IMG/VR virus record: IMGVR_UViG_2651869781_000009
Length of the DNA stretch: 6,014 nucleotides
Reading direction: 5' to 3' (one strand)
Source: a virus
Lineage: Duplodnaviria > Heunggongvirae > Uroviricota > Caudoviricetes
The notes under the pieces were generated by a model. The model searched no databases. It had not been told where the DNA came from and saw only the letters and a program-made list of their open reading frames with translations. Made by a program: the position numbers and the translations under genes. Below are positions 911-5,939 of this stretch, piece by piece. Positions within the stretch are counted from its first letter, which is position 1. Every line of letters begins with the position of its first letter.

Positions 911-1061
911 ATCCCCCTCACCCCACCAGCCATGACAAAGTTAAGACGCGCCAGGCAGTGGAAAAGCAAATAGCAACCAGCATTAGTGAAAATGAAATGC
1001 CGACGATTACACAGAGGATCTTCGCCAGCGTTATGAGCTTGTCTGACATGCTTAATCCTCT

Positions 1062-1244
1062 TCACGATTTCAACGCAATGACCAGTTTTGCCAGCCCATA
1101 CAGCATCGGAGACACAGCAATACCGACCGCCACCCACTTAATAGCAAAAGCCAGCGCTCTGCTGACGTCATCAGTTACAGGCGCTTTCAGTTCAAGGCCG
1201 TTTTTCATAGTCAATCTCAACAGAATTCGTTTATACTTTCCCAT
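1062..1244 (-). CDS. hypothetical 60-aa tail-anchored small membrane protein (basic N-terminus, C-terminal TM helix)
   Basis: ATG 1242-1244 preceded by AAGGGAGAAC (SD-like, short 3-nt spacing); TGA at 1062-1064; product MGKYKRILLRL...AFAIKWVAVGIAVSPMLYGLAKLVIALKS. The 86-aa form in the ORF track begins at GTG and reads through the terminator hairpin, so the internal ATG is preferred. No family recognised. Confidence 0.35.
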   Translation of the reverse strand: MGKYKRILLRLTMKNGLELKAPVTDDVSRALAFAIKWVAVGIAVSPMLYGLAKLVIALKS

Positions 1245-1277
1245 GTTCTCCCTTGCCTTACTCAAGGTCAGAAACAC

Positions 1278-1320
1278 AAAACCCCGTTTGCGGCCAACAA
1301 ACGGGGTTTTACTTTTATTC
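1278..1320. terminator. strong intrinsic terminator hairpin, potentially bidirectional
   Basis: 13-bp perfect stem AAAACCCCGTTTG (1278-1290) / CAAACGGGGTTTT (1298-1310) with 7-nt loop, then ACTTTTATT on + strand; the complement is also followed by a T-rich run (TTTTGTGTTTCT). Confidence 0.6.
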
Positions 1321-1399
1321 ACTTAGTTTTTGCCAGTTCGCAGGATTTCGTGTTATCCGCCCGCGTTGGCCAACGTCATTTTTCAGCAAAATATTCTGC

Positions 1400-1933
1400 T
1401 TATCTGTCAATTCCCCAGCACGCCAGTGCACTTTCCTGGTCTCGCCGGGATACCTGACCGTAGCAATTATTTGAGCGGATACGGCAGTCTCTGCCACCGT
1501 CCTTAATCCACCAGCGAATCGCTTCGCAGGCACCTTTTCGATCACCTGCATTAATCCGTCTGTAAAACGTAGACGGGAAACACTTACCGGGGCCAATGTT
1601 ATAAGGACAAAATGACGCGATACCCGCCTTCTGGGGTTCGGTCAGCGGTACTTTAATATTGCGCTCCACCCACTCCAGCGCCTTATCACGTTCAATGGCG
1701 TTAACCTGGTCGCACTTTTCCTTCGATAACTTCATACCCGGGACGACAGGCTTACCATCCACTCGGGTGGCACCGCGGCAGATGGTCCAGATCCCCGCAC
1801 CATCACGGTATGCCGTGGTGTGGTTACCTTCTTTTTCGTCAAGAAACTGGTCGAGGATTTCAGGCGCAGACGTCCCTGCACCAATCAGCGCCAGAACGGC
1901 AGCCGACAGGCCGTATCTGATTTTTGCGTTCAT
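1400..1933 (-). CDS. R: SAR endolysin (T4-lysozyme-like muramidase, GH24) with N-terminal signal-anchor-release domain
   Basis: 177 aa; Gly/Ala-rich weakly hydrophobic N-terminus (YGLSAAVLALIGAGTSAP) typical of SAR domains; catalytic triad spacing E-x8-D-x5-T (EGNHTTAYRDGAGIWT) as in T4 lysozyme and phage 21 R; resembles Qin-prophage lysozyme from memory. No SD-like sequence upstream of ATG 1931-1933. Confidence 0.9.
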   Translation of the reverse strand: MNAKIRYGLSAAVLALIGAGTSAPEILDQFLDEKEGNHTTAYRDGAGIWTICRGATRVDGKPVVPGMKLSKEKCDQVNAIERDKALEWVERNIKVPLTEPQKAGIASFCPYNIGPGKCFPSTFYRRINAGDRKGACEAIRWWIKDGGRDCRIRSNNCYGQVSRRDQESALACWGIDR

Positions 1934-2058: not shown

Positions 2059-2322
2059 ATGAATGAAGAAAATACAGCGCTTTTTGACAGAATTTTCACT
2101 CTTGAGTTACAGGTCGGTTTTCTTCTCCCAAAGATAATCAAAGCCATGGATGCACTTGGTAAGAATAACGCTGTGTCAGATTACCTGATCGCCGAAATGG
2201 AACATCTCATTAAAGAAATACCAAAGACCGATGCTCGTGATGATAAAAGATTCCTCAGGGCTGCTGAAAATGCTCTTTCGACCGTGAAGCGCAGCTTAGA
2301 CGCGCCGCAAGATCAAGAATAG
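2059..2322 (+). CDS. hypothetical 87-aa acidic, predicted helical protein on the opposite strand to the lysis cassette (candidate moron)
   Basis: Only long open frame in an AT-rich segment visibly lower in GC than the flanking lysis genes, where stop codons are frequent; ATG 2059-2061, TAG 2320-2322; no clear SD; GATAAT at 2045-2050 could be a -10 giving a near-leaderless transcript. Converges on the 148-aa gene with a 15-bp gap. Confidence 0.4.
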   Translation: MNEENTALFDRIFTLELQVGFLLPKIIKAMDALGKNNAVSDYLIAEMEHLIKEIPKTDARDDKRFLRAAENALSTVKRSLDAPQDQE

Positions 2323-2788: not shown

Positions 2789-3004
2789 TTACTCTCCCCG
2801 CGCCGCCTTACGACGGTCCTCTCTGATTTTGAAATACAGGTTAGTCAGATACGTCAGCAGGCCAAACAGCAGACTCCCCAGCACACCTATCGCCACCCAC
2901 TGGGACGGAGAGACTTTGTCCAGCAGCTGCAGTAACCAGTATCCCGTCCCCACCGCTGACGTGGTGTATGACACACCCGTTGTGATTTTTTCCATCTGGT
3001 ACAT
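2789..3004 (-). CDS. S: class II pinholin (phage 21 S-like) with dual-start motif
   Basis: 71 aa; MYQMEK... gives Met1 and Met4 starts; two TMDs (TMD1 Gly/Ala-rich SAR-like, TMD2 [23 protein letters not shown]); C-terminus [15 protein letters not shown] matches recalled S21 (YFKIKEDKRKAARGE); SD GGGAGA 6 nt upstream of Met1. Confidence 0.9.
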
Positions 3005-3716: not shown

Positions 3717-5654
3717 TTACGGGTTATTCACTTCCACTGTTATACTTTCAATCAGCACCGGATATGTCGCACCGCTAGTGATATCGGTCACGCGCAATTT
3801 GTCTGCCGTAAACGTGCCGACCGGTGACTGTGACAGCATGAACGGCGTCCCGTCCTTACCATCAATGACCGGCGTCACCTCAATACTGTTGTTACCGGCA
3901 AAACGGAAGCCCAGCGTATGCCATTCGTTATCAAATGCGCCGAATGACCCCAGCTTCGTGTTCTGACCAGCATTTCCCTTGTGGTACATCACATTAAGGT
4001 CTGTGGCATCGCTCTGTACGTAAAACGACGCCAGCAGGTTATGACCGGCATTACCTTCCAGTGTGACGCCCTGAGGCAGTGAAGAAACCGGCCAGTACAG
4101 CGCCAGTGCGTACTGATTAGCTGTCAGTGTGCCATCAACTTTAAAACGACAACTGATAAGCCCGCCCTTCTCCAGCAGGTCTGCGCCATTACCGACATCA
4201 TGCTGCATAAACCACGAGGAACTTCCTGTCTGTTTGGTCCACCTCAGCGCCTTACCTCCTGCAGCACCTGCATCATCAACTACCAATGCACGCCCTCCTT
4301 CAGCTCCCCATCCCTGCGGATTCAGTAAACCACCTGACTCTGTTGCACGGTAATAAAGCAGCGTTGTCACTGATTTCCCGTCCGTTGACGGTGTTGATGG
4401 TGTGTCCGGTGACGGCTTCTCATCCGGCGGCATCACAACCTGTTCCCCACCCACCAGTTCAGCCGTCCGTCCTGCATGGAGAAGAATCGCTGAGGCAAGA
4501 CGGTCAGAAATAATCCCCCTGCGTGCCCATGAGCTGAAATGGCTCGCACGGTCTGCTGACGTCCAGTTTGCCGACGTCCGGGAGGCCGCACCGTAATATC
4601 CTGATGCCGGAATATCCGGGTCTTCTTCCGGTTTGTTCGTCGGGACATTTGCTCCGTTCTCATCGGTCATGAACGGCACAAAGTGAATATTCTTTTCCGT
4701 TTTGTTTTTGTAACTGCCGTACACCGTCTGGTAAGTGGATTCGCTCTTCTGCTTCCAGAAATAAGTTGTGTCTCCACATATCCAGGGAACACCGTCAGCA
4801 GAACCACCAGCGCACTGTCCCACCATATCTGCAAGGTCCGTACGATATTGTTCCACTACTTCTGTAAAACGGGCTGTGTGATTTGCTGGCGTTCCGTCAA
4901 AGTCAAATTCCCCCTGCATCCACACCACGGCAAGCAGCACATTTTTCGGGTTCTTTGCCAGCGCGGCTTTTGTACGACCGATGAGATCCTTATACAGCGG
5001 CCTGCCCACACCCCAGCGGGTAGAACTCTCTGAGGCACCGGTCACGTCACTGTATGTTCCATCTGCCCCGGTGGTGAAAGCTGAACCACCACGGCAGCAC
5101 GGAACCAGAAGAATACCCGCATTCGCCGGTATAAACGGCAGCAGCTTTTTGGCAATATGCAGCCCCTGCCCCACGGTTCCGTACTGACCTTTCGACAGGT
5201 CAGCTTTCGGATGGTTAAGACGGCTCATGTCCTGTACATCATGCAGACAGTGGTCTGCCGGAATAATGTCGTTATATTTACAGGGAGCGCCATCCGGCGT
5301 CACTGTGCTGCGACGAGCCAGTTGCTTTATACGCGGGTCAGGACGGTCATATGTCTGCGGCAGAGGAAGCCCCTCACCGTAAGCCATGCCGTTCGACTGC
5401 CCGGCCAGTGGAATAACGTAGTAATAATCTGGCTCCGTGGTGACCACTCCCGGATAGCCACCATCCCCCGTGCCGGGCACAACCACTGGCGTGGTCACAT
5501 CCCCCTCCGCGGCAATCGCCTGCATCAGGGTATAAGGGGTTATGGCCACAGGACTACCAAACGGCTGCCAGCCCTCTTTCAGTTTGTGTGTCAGCTTTTC
5601 CGCAAGATCTGACGGCGACGCCGCCCTGACAACATCATAATGTTTAATCGACAT
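3717..5654 (-). CDS. nanS-p: prophage-encoded sialate O-acetylesterase, NanS-p-like (SGNH/SASA esterase)
   Basis: 645 aa; GQSN SGNH-hydrolase block I motif (IPLAGQSNGMAYGEG); length and position (after late promoter, before S) match NanS-p/yjhS homologues of O157 lambdoid prophages as recalled; ATG 5652-5654 preceded by GGGAGA at 6 nt. Confidence 0.85.
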   Translation of the reverse strand: MSIKHYDVVRAASPSDLAEKLTHKLKEGWQPFGSPVAITPYTLMQAIAAEGDVTTPVVVPGTGDGGYPGVVTTEPDYYYVIPLAGQSNGMAYGEGLPLPQTYDRPDPRIKQLARRSTVTPDGAPCKYNDIIPADHCLHDVQDMSRLNHPKADLSKGQYGTVGQGLHIAKKLLPFIPANAGILLVPCCRGGSAFTTGADGTYSDVTGASESSTRWGVGRPLYKDLIGRTKAALAKNPKNVLLAVVWMQGEFDFDGTPANHTARFTEVVEQYRTDLADMVGQCAGGSADGVPWICGDTTYFWKQKSESTYQTVYGSYKNKTEKNIHFVPFMTDENGANVPTNKPEEDPDIPASGYYGAASRTSANWTSADRASHFSSWARRGIISDRLASAILLHAGRTAELVGGEQVVMPPDEKPSPDTPSTPSTDGKSVTTLLYYRATESGGLLNPQGWGAEGGRALVVDDAGAAGGKALRWTKQTGSSSWFMQHDVGNGADLLEKGGLISCRFKVDGTLTANQYALALYWPVSSLPQGVTLEGNAGHNLLASFYVQSDATDLNVMYHKGNAGQNTKLGSFGAFDNEWHTLGFRFAGNNSIEVTPVIDGKDGTPFMLSQSPVGTFTADKLRVTDITSGATYPVLIESITVEVNNP

Positions 5655-5740: not shown

Positions 5741-5767
5741 AAAAAAAAGGCCGCGCCATGCGCAGCC
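5741..5767 (-). terminator. intrinsic terminator on minus strand, candidate tR' of the late operon
   Basis: Minus-strand reading GGCUGCGC-AUG-GCGCGGCC (8-bp stem, one G.U pair) followed by U8 (plus-strand A8 at 5741-5748); about 87 nt upstream of the nanS-p start. Confidence 0.55.
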
Positions 5768-5879
5768 GGAAATAAAGGGATAACGATGATAGTTTGAGAA
5801 AAACAGAAATAACACTTTTGTGGCAAAGCATGGTGCCGGGTGCCTCCCGGTGAATTCAGTACCAGCACCTGAATCCGCG

Positions 5880-5888
5880 ATTATCCCA
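5880..5888 (-). promoter_or_regulatory. candidate extended -10 promoter element (TGGGATAAT on minus strand); possible late promoter pR'
   Basis: Minus-strand TGnGATAAT about 115-130 nt upstream of the tR'-like terminator, the right spacing for a short 6S-like leader; no good -35, acceptable for extended -10 promoters. Weak call. Confidence 0.25.
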
Positions 5889-5920
5889 TATACCTGGTTG
5901 CTGATTGCCCCTCCGCACAG

Positions 5921-5939
5921 CTGTCTCTTATACACAAGT
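5921..5939 (+). other. isolated 19-mer CTGTCTCTTATACACAAGT, 18/19 identical to the IS50/Tn5 outside end (17/19 to the mosaic end)
   Basis: Direct reading; only position 4 (T for A) differs from the recalled OE CTGACTCTTATACACAAGT; flanks do not match IS50 interior or Nextera adapter continuation; no inverted copy found in window. Confidence 0.3.

Follow-up and report, generated by a model that had tools for sequence, protein, structure and literature searches.

The 6,014-nucleotide stretch analysed here (IMG/VR record IMGVR_UViG_2651869781_000009; hereafter the window) carries the late region of a lambdoid, Shiga toxin (Stx) phage-like Escherichia coli prophage, with the lysis and other late genes on the minus strand. 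Between the genes for the endolysin R and the spanin Rz lies an insert of 489 bp (positions 911–1399), the "about 490 bp" of an initial annotation of this DNA. In it, a hairpin, a short leader and an open reading frame (ORF) for a 60-residue membrane peptide together appear, from comparison with relatives (cited below by L numbers), to form a portable cassette that occurs in the lysis and tail modules of unrelated prophages. The cassette is probably an antisense-controlled gene for a small membrane peptide, as a promoter motif conserved on the opposite strand of its 5′ coding region suggests. The fuller reading that we favour, tentatively, is of a module resembling type I toxin–antitoxin systems, in which a tail-anchored membrane peptide would be gated by an antisense RNA and expressed by Q-antiterminated late transcription.

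The element itself is common, and its ORFs already carried annotations as hypothetical proteins. New are its behaviour as a mobile unit of hairpin, leader and ORF, the conserved antisense promoter, and the presence in Stx phages of a second, Rz-linked gene of 43 codons. Searches of the literature by locus tag, WP accession and PHROG identifier returned nothing on the mobile unit, the antisense promoter or the 43-residue gene, and the 60-residue family is not mentioned in the main text of either Fozo et al. 2010 or the 'Cryptic Bacterial Microproteome' paper. Both small genes are widespread in the prophages of pathogenic E. coli, and both are without name, function or literature.

The 60-residue membrane-peptide gene

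The initial annotation described an ORF with a Shine–Dalgarno (SD)-like sequence, a basic N-terminus and a single C-terminal transmembrane helix, and each of these features is borne out. The SD sequence, AAGGGAG, is kept in the copies of Sakai prophage Sp4, L093, L105 and L110. The first 30 residues carry a net charge of +4, and the best 19-residue hydrophobic window spans residues 38–56, with a Kyte–Doolittle mean of 1.9. AlphaFold predicts helices at residues 3–15 and 22–59, with modest confidence (predicted local distance difference test score, pLDDT, 68). The conserved core of the family is the C-terminal transmembrane helix (AFAIKWVAVGIAVSPxLYGLAKLIIAL), the N-termini being exchanged or absent in some members. 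Met13 (1208–1206) is preceded by a GAGG SD sequence of its own and is a possible second start.

Comparison across 13 diverged contexts gives ratios of non-synonymous to synonymous substitution (dN/dS) of 0.05–0.46 at dS values of 0.66–2.7, which are saturated. Among 37 unique close copies the variable sites fall 2/2/10 at codon positions 1, 2 and 3, a periodicity that cannot tell the gene from the plus-strand frame 958–1326, with which it shares its third codon positions. That 122-residue frame, which the initial annotation had entertained as possibly the conserved one, is refuted by internal stops in four relatives (L100, L101, L102 and L110) that spare the minus-strand ORF. The latter is intact in all 13 contexts, which thus do not show the disruption that would have spoken against it. 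We conclude that the 60-residue gene is, on this comparative evidence, a real one under purifying selection. An 86-residue version extended to a GTG codon (1062–1322) was rejected, as the hairpin would have to be translated and what precedes it in other contexts is unrelated sequence.

These data also bear on the idea that the insert is no more than mosaic junk at a recombination junction, with chance ORFs and a leftover terminator. The junction is indeed mosaic, with several alternative fillings, and frameshifted copies exist (P0100, and the C-terminus of the 43-residue ORF in 8 of about 80 loci). Both ORFs, however, are under strong purifying selection, so that dN/dS already contradicts this explanation; ORF length is conserved, five genera and the plaque-forming PhiR12 phages have kept the cassette, and the hairpin covaries. 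We regard junk as very improbable.

The initial annotation recognised no family for the product. This stands for Pfam and NCBIfam (E ≤ 1) and for PADLOC, none of which gave a match, and the protein belongs to none of the Pfam or NCBIfam entries for described toxin families (Hok, Ldr, TisB, Ibs, ShoB, Zor, DinQ and others). It does not stand for PHROGs, which recognises the 43-residue protein as well as the 60-residue one; the latter matches phrog_1115 (6.6e-42), phrog_4493 and phrog_3246, all of unknown function. The Prokaryotic Genome Annotation Pipeline (PGAP) calls both ORFs hypothetical proteins, and the homologues of the 60-residue protein, in Escherichia, Salmonella, Klebsiella, Serratia, Lelliottia and one unclassified Enterobacteriaceae isolate, are likewise all 'hypothetical'. 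The family is narrow: an exhaustive profile search found just 29 cluster representatives at E ≤ 1e-3. Among species-representative genomes, a protein-pattern scan found no family match and a DNA-pattern scan matched one genome, that of Lelliottia wanjuensis. The protein has the size and hydrophobicity of a type I toxin (membrane-targeted and shorter than about 70 residues), and the resemblance to small membrane toxins drawn in the initial annotation holds, being strengthened by the comparative data.

In three relatives the start of the gene is organised differently. The copies in Sakai Sp4 (L089, about 8700–8950), Salmonella L093 (2930–3000) and L105 (1080–1150) have an 8-codon leader ORF, encoding MGREVLSL, MCREVYSL or MYREVCSL, whose stop codon overlaps the main GTG start (GTGA), and an AGGGA/TCCCT stem hides the second SD sequence. 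In the window copy, a deletion of about 24 nt fuses the leader start to the peptide, and the leader's SD sequence and ATG are used directly.

The hairpin upstream of the gene

The 13-bp perfect stem with T-runs on both sides that the initial annotation reported is present at 1278–1310, where 1278–1290 pair with 1298–1310 (6 G–C pairs) and the T-rich tails read TTTTACTTTTATT on the plus strand and TTTTGTGTTTCTG on the minus strand. A stem-loop followed directly by a U-tract has the structure of an intrinsic (Rho-independent) terminator, and we propose that this one may act in both directions. The scanning tool scored it as a terminator on the plus strand only, that is, antisense to the lysis genes. 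The 80-nt plus-strand RNA at 1243–1322 folds into two stem-loops at −24.6 kcal/mol (z = −3.9), with none of 200 shuffled sequences as stable.

The family hairpin has a core of AAAACCCCG, four variable bases, the loop, four complementary bases and CGGGGTTTT, and it precedes members of the peptide family in unrelated modules. It sits 30–70 nt upstream of the ORF in every diverged context fetched, the distance to the ATG in the window being 34 nt. Among 19 distinct hairpins, 89.5% of the alignment cells are paired and five pairs are changed on both sides; the covariation score is 0.143, compared with 0.074 in shuffles, and none of 500 shuffles reaches the observed value. L097 has a hairpin of other sequence but of the same form and in the same place. 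A T-tract of the form TTTT-N2-3-TTTT on the antisense side is kept across contexts and marks the boundary of the cassette. Its covariation, and its company with the ORF from context to context, mark the hairpin as a structure under selection and as part of the peptide gene, not of R. The initial reading of it as a terminator between R and Rz therefore needs amendment: it is not simply the terminator of R, but is placed to end a transcript running antisense to the 60-residue gene. That a terminator lies within the late operon, as was also pointed out, is correct, but this is ordinary under Q antitermination, and the window holds a second, tR′-type terminator at 5767–5749.

In the non-lambdoid contexts of L097 (2897–2918), L104 (6879–6896) and L108 (2368–2385), a second, sense-oriented terminator (...GGTTTTTT-A/G-TACCC) lies some 10–20 nt upstream of the family hairpin, so that the peptide gene there is insulated by tandem terminators.

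The 89 bp that separate the hairpin from the end of R also occur 3′ of R in Stx phages that have neither the hairpin nor the 60-residue gene (Ss-VASD, L002), and 37 unique E. coli copies differ at 24 of these 89 positions. This spacer contains a conserved GGCGGATAACAC(A/G)AAATCC motif (1341–1366 on the minus strand of the window; 2857–2878 in L093). In Salmonella the GGCGGATAACAC motif forms a 7-bp inverted repeat that the scanning tool flagged as terminator-like. It also agrees over 10 nt with the core of the lac operator (GCGGATAACA), probably by chance.

Occurrence and portability of the cassette

Of 5426 complete E. coli genomes, 990 (about 18%) carry at least 80% of the insert, at up to 10 matching places per genome; identity is 100% in strain 2014C-3011 and 98.6% in several O157:H7 strains. 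In Sakai prophage Sp14, ECs_2740 and ECs_5740, the counterparts of the two small ORFs, lie between the endolysin gene ECs_2741 and the Rz gene ECs_2738, and plaque-forming phages of the PhiR12 and PhiR5 series share the arrangement of the window. In Qin of K-12, rrrQ and rzpQ (R and Rz) are directly adjacent. Most Stx phages, and Sakai Sp6, Sp9, Sp10 and Sp12, have a larger insert in the same slot, comprising the antirepressor gene ant and the 43-residue ORF; alignment of the junction variants shows that the 89 bp after R are retained in these, with the hairpin and 60-residue gene exchanged for ant. The separation of R and Rz, which had been remarked upon by comparison with lambda, is thus real but not unusual: these variants show it to be the normal state in phages of this group, with the junction as a hot spot of mosaicism.

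A further variant, seen in L003 and L005, has an R–Rz gap of 642 bp in which three or four small transmembrane ORFs stand in a row. The hairpin is followed by an unrelated tail-anchored ORF of roughly 44 codons, then by the 43-residue ORF and by two fragments consisting of a transmembrane segment only, one of 38 residues from the 60-residue family, with a start that overlaps the preceding stop (GTGA), and one of 28 residues from the Sp4-type paralogue.

Beyond this junction, the cassette is found after the endolysin gene in the lysis regions of Salmonella L093 and L103, metagenomic L105 and Sakai Sp4, and it adjoins a DUF2514 Rz-like gene in L110. It also stands ahead of sheath-initiator and baseplate genes (Klebsiella L100, Serratia L101), between tail tube and tail chaperone (L102), just upstream of a J-like tail gene (L108 and L109, in the latter after a Lambda_tail_I-like gene) and after a tail-fibre-associated gene (Salmonella L097); a Lelliottia copy is found in L104. 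With six or more junction types, and with presence or absence among otherwise collinear phages as is characteristic of morons, the hairpin, leader and 60-residue ORF behave as a single portable unit.

Such a distribution raises the possibility of a moron expressed in the lysogen that protects the host, by superinfection exclusion or another membrane-level defence (compare HK97 gp15, lambda Bor and Lom, and Cor). A small membrane protein encoded where morons are typically inserted (R/Rz, upstream of J, after tail fibres), variably present in similar phages and at up to 10 places per genome, would suit such a role. We consider it improbable nonetheless, since no sense promoter was found in the seven contexts scanned, one terminator (two in L097, L104 and L108) stands between upstream transcription and the ORF, and PADLOC gave no match.

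The antisense promoter motif and a predicted antisense RNA

Inside the 5′ coding region of the 60-residue gene, on the opposite strand, is a sigma-70-like promoter that points toward the hairpin. Neither this promoter (1208–1237) nor the 43-residue ORF (918–1049) figured in the initial annotation. A promoter-like site occurs at the homologous place in every member of the family, and in L100, L102, L104, L097, L108 and L093 it is the only or the main promoter-like match. The −10 box, which is the reverse complement of K/N-Y-K codons, reads TATACT in 95 of about 98 copies, TATAAT in two and TACACT in one. The −35 box remains promoter-like despite differing residues in the protein (TAGTCA, TGGTCA, TTGTCA, TGGACA, TTATCA, TTGGCC). 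The codons beneath the two boxes (AAG TAT AAA, AGG TTG and ATG AAA AAC) show no synonymous variation, whereas codons downstream use 2–5 synonyms; the first conserved Tyr is TAT in 12 of 12 sequences, and the second is TAT in seven and TAC in four. On the sense strand, no sigma-70-like promoter was found in the window between 400 and 3100 or in the six relatives scanned.

From the geometry of promoter and terminator, a cis-antisense RNA of about 75–80 nt is predicted, which would be complementary to the SD sequence and start codon of the 60-residue ORF and would end at the hairpin and its U-tract. The same promoter-to-hairpin layout, with a length of 74–113 nt, is predicted in all 13 contexts.

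Published Sakai data (Hucker et al. 2017, PMC5597208) give a weak hint of transcription in this direction: XECs106, a small ORF located immediately 3′ of the Sp4 hairpin on the antisense strand, is listed there with a low RNA-seq and RIBO-seq signal. This feature, at Sakai 1,184,893–1,184,994 on the plus strand, is antisense to the 3′ end of R, and its equivalent in the window is a 35-residue frame at 1350–1457 (+). The Sakai Ribo-seq list of small genes in the same paper has no entry at Sp14. Among the EcOnc RNAs there is none at the Sp14 or Sp4 cassette. EcOnc11/EcOnc12 (now HnrS) was rejected as a match, since it lies downstream of Rz and is absent from the window, and EcOnc33 was rejected because it lies within nanS-p.

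It could be that the main payload of the cassette is a trans-acting prophage small RNA (sRNA) of the AsxR/AgvB/HnrS kind, with its overlap of the peptide start being secondary. The antisense direction has the full layout of an sRNA gene (promoter, 75–110 nt and intrinsic terminator), the late regions of enterohaemorrhagic E. coli (EHEC) prophages are hot spots for short sRNAs so oriented (PMC4104026; HnrS, PMC13502914), and the window has an STnc100-like element at 5836–5923. The body of the RNA is not conserved, however: the leaders of L100, L101, L102, L104 and L108 are unrelated between promoter and hairpin, so that there is no common seed sequence. What is conserved is the transmembrane domain of the peptide, which is outside the RNA. 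Neither a peak in the Hfq data obtained by UV cross-linking and analysis of cDNA (CRAC) nor an Rfam match was found. A trans-acting RNA as the principal product seems a poor prospect to us.

The 43-residue gene beside Rz

The second small ORF of the insert, with its own SD sequence and a single, strongly hydrophobic transmembrane segment, has a far wider distribution among phages. By tblastn it is present in 276 phage records, compared with 14 for the 60-residue ORF; these are mainly Stx-converting phages and include most of the Stx1- and Stx2-converting ones (933W-like, BP-4795, Min27, P13374), many of the records being without an annotation for it. It is kept next to Rz even where ant takes the place of the hairpin and 60-residue gene. 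The family is confined to E. coli, with most full-length members exactly 43 residues long down to about 60% identity, and dN/dS is 0.03–0.5. The protein corresponds to phrog_4906 (7e-24), of unknown function. Of about 80 IMG/VR copies, 8 have a frameshift that alters the last 17 residues. On these comparisons the ORF appears to be a separate conserved membrane-protein gene that is linked to Rz and independent of the 60-residue cassette. Unannotated as it is in many reference Stx-phage records, it is relevant to any dissection of Stx-phage lysis.

Comparison with known systems

A close parallel in layout is SymE/SymR, a toxin–antitoxin pair of type I found in E. coli, in which an antisense promoter in the 5′ coding region drives a constitutive RNA of about 77 nt, fully complementary to the start codon and SD sequence. 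The cassette would share with it an antisense promoter inside the 5′ coding region of the target and an RNA that covers the start codon and SD sequence. SymE, however, is a soluble protein of 113 residues with its own LexA-controlled promoter, whereas the cassette encodes a transmembrane peptide of 50–66 residues, has no sense promoter that we could find and lies within a phage late operon. Moreover, the predicted antisense RNA would end, unlike SymR, at a hairpin that also faces the sense direction, and no sequence similarity is known.

With hok/mok/sok the cassette has in common a small membrane-targeted peptide and, in Sp4, L093 and L105, a leader whose stop overlaps the main start together with a stem that hides the SD sequence. 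Hok differs in its N-terminal transmembrane segment, periplasmic tail, own promoter and long-range mRNA folding. The window copy, unlike hok/mok, is without a leader ORF, following the deletion of about 24 nt, and there is no match to the Pfam Hok/Gef family. Copies of mokC/hokC themselves lie upstream of Q in Sakai Sp6, Sp12 and Sp14.

Phage morons, as conceived by Juhala and Hendrix and exemplified by lambda bor and lom and HK97 gp15, have a sense promoter upstream and a terminator downstream and are expressed in the lysogen. The cassette resembles them as an extra gene for a small membrane protein between conserved late genes that is missing from close relatives. It departs from the classical form in that its terminator is upstream and its sole promoter-like site is antisense, a downstream terminator being present only in L097 and L108.

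The two possible starts of the 60-residue ORF, Met1 and Met13, each with an SD sequence, recall the dual starts of holin and antiholin (S105/S107 of lambda, S68/S71 of phage 21). Unlike these, the gene lies downstream of R and also occurs in tail modules, and its product has one C-terminal transmembrane segment and ends in ...ALKS without a charged tail. In these respects it does not fit the holin/antiholin pattern, and the window already has a P21-type holin gene at 2789–3004.

Finally, AsxR, AgvB and HnrS are EHEC prophage sRNAs of 50–80 nt that have a sigma-70 promoter and an intrinsic terminator and oppose the late operon (PMC4104026, PMC13502914). The predicted cassette RNA would be like them in being short, in running against the late operon and in its location at moron sites of the same lambdoid prophages. 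They differ in being intergenic, Hfq-bound and trans-acting, with conserved seeds, whereas the predicted RNA overlaps the start of a protein and has a body that is not conserved. At the Sp14 and Sp4 copies and at 1243–1320, neither a CRAC peak nor a known RNA family identifies an Hfq-bound RNA. HnrS itself is not in the window; in Sp9, Sp10 and Sp12 its place is downstream of Rz.

A model for the cassette and its rivals

How might such a cassette work? In the lysogen, the hairpin would block sense transcription, and the constitutive sigma-70 promoter in codons 3–13 would fire in the opposite direction to give a 75–80-nt RNA that ends at the hairpin. This RNA, perfectly complementary to the start codon and SD sequence, would silence any leaky peptide message. 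After induction, Q-modified RNA polymerase would pass through the hairpin, late mRNA would come to exceed the antisense RNA, and the peptide would be made together with the 43-residue protein and Rz/Rz1. In Sp4, L093 and L105, antisense RNA over the leader might control translation indirectly, as Sok does through mok. Processive antitermination by Q is established lambda biology, and the tR′-type terminator at 5767–5749 indicates that the operon depends on it. Direct support extends to three elements of this scheme, namely genes that appear to be real, a conserved hairpin that moves with the ORF and a conserved antisense promoter motif; the existence of the antisense RNA, translational repression, the membrane activity or toxicity of the peptide and Q-dependent read-through we infer.

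Several observations weigh against this model. Classical type I toxin genes carry their own promoter, and for the cassette none was found, either in the window between 400 and 3100 or in the six relatives. L003 and L005 carry the transmembrane part alone, with the promoter region absent, which suggests that the peptide is not always in need of antisense control. The antisense promoter is weak, with 9–10 of 12 consensus matches and an 18-nt spacer, and some 25–41% of synonymous recodings still yield an antisense promoter-like motif in most members; part of the signal therefore comes with the protein sequence, and the statistics are no more than suggestive. An internal ribosome-binding site (GAGG-N7-ATG) might be what keeps the codons around Met13 invariant instead. 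Rfam gave no match at 1243–1320, and the Hfq-CRAC data for Sakai list no peak in Sp14 at 2,691.7–2,692.2 kb or at the Sp4 copy (PMC4104026, Table S2).

What we see as the main rival, unlikely as we judge it, is that both small proteins are products of plain Q-dependent late genes and are accessories in lysis, for instance as modulators of the pinholin, of the release of the signal-anchor-release (SAR) endolysin or of the spanins. The hairpin would then be a mere terminator or RNA-stability element, and the antisense 'promoter' a by-product of the K-Y-K...L-T-M codons, as the recodings permit. Both genes lie on the strand of the lysis genes with tight spacing (12 nt from the 60-residue to the 43-residue ORF and 7 nt from there to Rz) and their own SD sequences, and the failure to find a sense promoter between 400 and 3100 fits with this. 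So too do the contexts themselves, roughly one in two of which is within a lysis cassette or immediately ahead of an Rz-type gene, the position of the 43-residue ORF beside Rz in the 276 phage records, the row of small transmembrane ORFs between R and Rz in L003 and L005, and the lack of a reported Hfq-CRAC peak at the Sp14 and Sp4 copies. Members of the family are also found, however, in the tail and baseplate modules of myovirus-like and P2-like prophages, distant from lysis genes. The hairpin is carried along 5′ of the ORF, a position from which a plain terminator could only lower the expression of the gene it accompanies, and the antisense-side T-tract is conserved across contexts. Moreover, synonymous change is absent beneath the −10 and −35 boxes although dS exceeds 1 elsewhere. 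The other alternatives, a trans-acting sRNA, an exclusion protein and junk, are less likely than lysis accessories.

If the antisense-gated peptide is as we envisage, it would represent a new family of type-I-toxin-like modules inside phage late operons, moving as a cassette, and it would bear on the biology of Stx phages because toxin release depends on the timing of lysis. A bolder extension, which we offer as a long shot, is that the cassette serves as a lysis fuse: the constitutive antisense RNA would set a threshold for late transcription, and once Q antitermination had carried late mRNA beyond it the peptide would accumulate, depolarise the inner membrane, trigger the pinholin and free the SAR endolysin, and the cassette would have spread among temperate Enterobacterales phages in this role. 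The 43-residue protein would then be a further unrecognised part of the lysis machinery of Stx phages.

Other features of the window

The features of the window are listed in Table 1. The G+C content of the insert, 0.43–0.51, is slightly below that of its flanks (0.51–0.56) and is uninformative.

Table 1. Positions of the cassette, its neighbours and other late-region features in the window
Feature	Position	Strand	Remarks
Rz i-spanin gene	443–910	−	Pfam Phage_lysis, 1.7e-46; start at 910; downstream boundary of insert
Rz1	505–690	−	Embedded within Rz; from ORF list
43-residue ORF	918–1049	−	Sakai ECs_5740, WP_001280929.1; own SD; single transmembrane segment, Kyte–Doolittle mean 2.86
60-residue ORF	1062–1244	−	Sakai ECs_2740, WP_001303555.1; basic N-terminal helix, linker, C-terminal transmembrane helix
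Putative sigma-70-like promoter, antisense to 60-residue ORF	1208–1237	+	−35 TAGTCA, 18-nt spacer, −10 TATACT; inside codons 3–13
Predicted cis-antisense RNA	1243–1320	+	About 75–80 nt; from geometry of promoter and terminator; start near 1243–1245
SD sequence of 60-residue ORF	1254–1248	−	AAGGGAG; partly in local stem CCUUG/CAAGG in fold of sense leader
Hairpin	1278–1310	.	13-bp stem, 7-nt loop; 5′ boundary of portable cassette
Spacer, R stop to hairpin	1311–1399	.	89 bp; R flank, outside cassette
Endolysin R gene	1400–1933	−	177 residues; Pfam Phage_lysozyme, 1.9e-25; stop codon 1400–1402; upstream boundary of insert
87-residue ORF	2059–2322	+	WP_001001501.1; phrog_18136, function unknown; between YdfR/DUF1327 gene and R
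DUF1327/YdfR-family ORF	2338–2784	−	148 residues; Pfam domain covers residues 1–112 only
P21-type holin gene	2789–3004	−	Pfam PF04971, 1e-32
DUF1378 and DUF826 genes	Between 645-residue ORF and holin gene	−	From ORF list and Pfam
645-residue ORF	3717–5654	−	Equal-length counterpart in Sakai Sp6, ECs_1527, annotated 9-O-acetyl-N-acetylneuraminic acid deacetylase
tR′-type terminator	5767–5749	−	Strong; 8 pairs, 7 G–C, T8
STnc100-like element	5836–5923	−	Rfam RF02076, 41 bits (gathering score 47), E 1.7e-6

The endolysin is likely to be of the SAR type, to judge from its Gly/Ala-rich hydrophobic N-terminus, and to be paired with the P21-type holin. The YdfR equivalent between holin and endolysin is about 104–115 residues long in Sakai and K-12, and in strain 2014C-3011 the YdfR-family gene at the matching position is annotated as an incomplete pseudogene. 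The plus-strand 87-residue ORF is followed by a terminator-like hairpin (2345–2372, +), and constitutes a further moron-like insert in the lysis cassette. At the other end of the window, the STnc100-like element and the terminator that follows it resemble the PR′-proximal short transcript and tR′ of a late operon, in a position of the StxS/PasD type.

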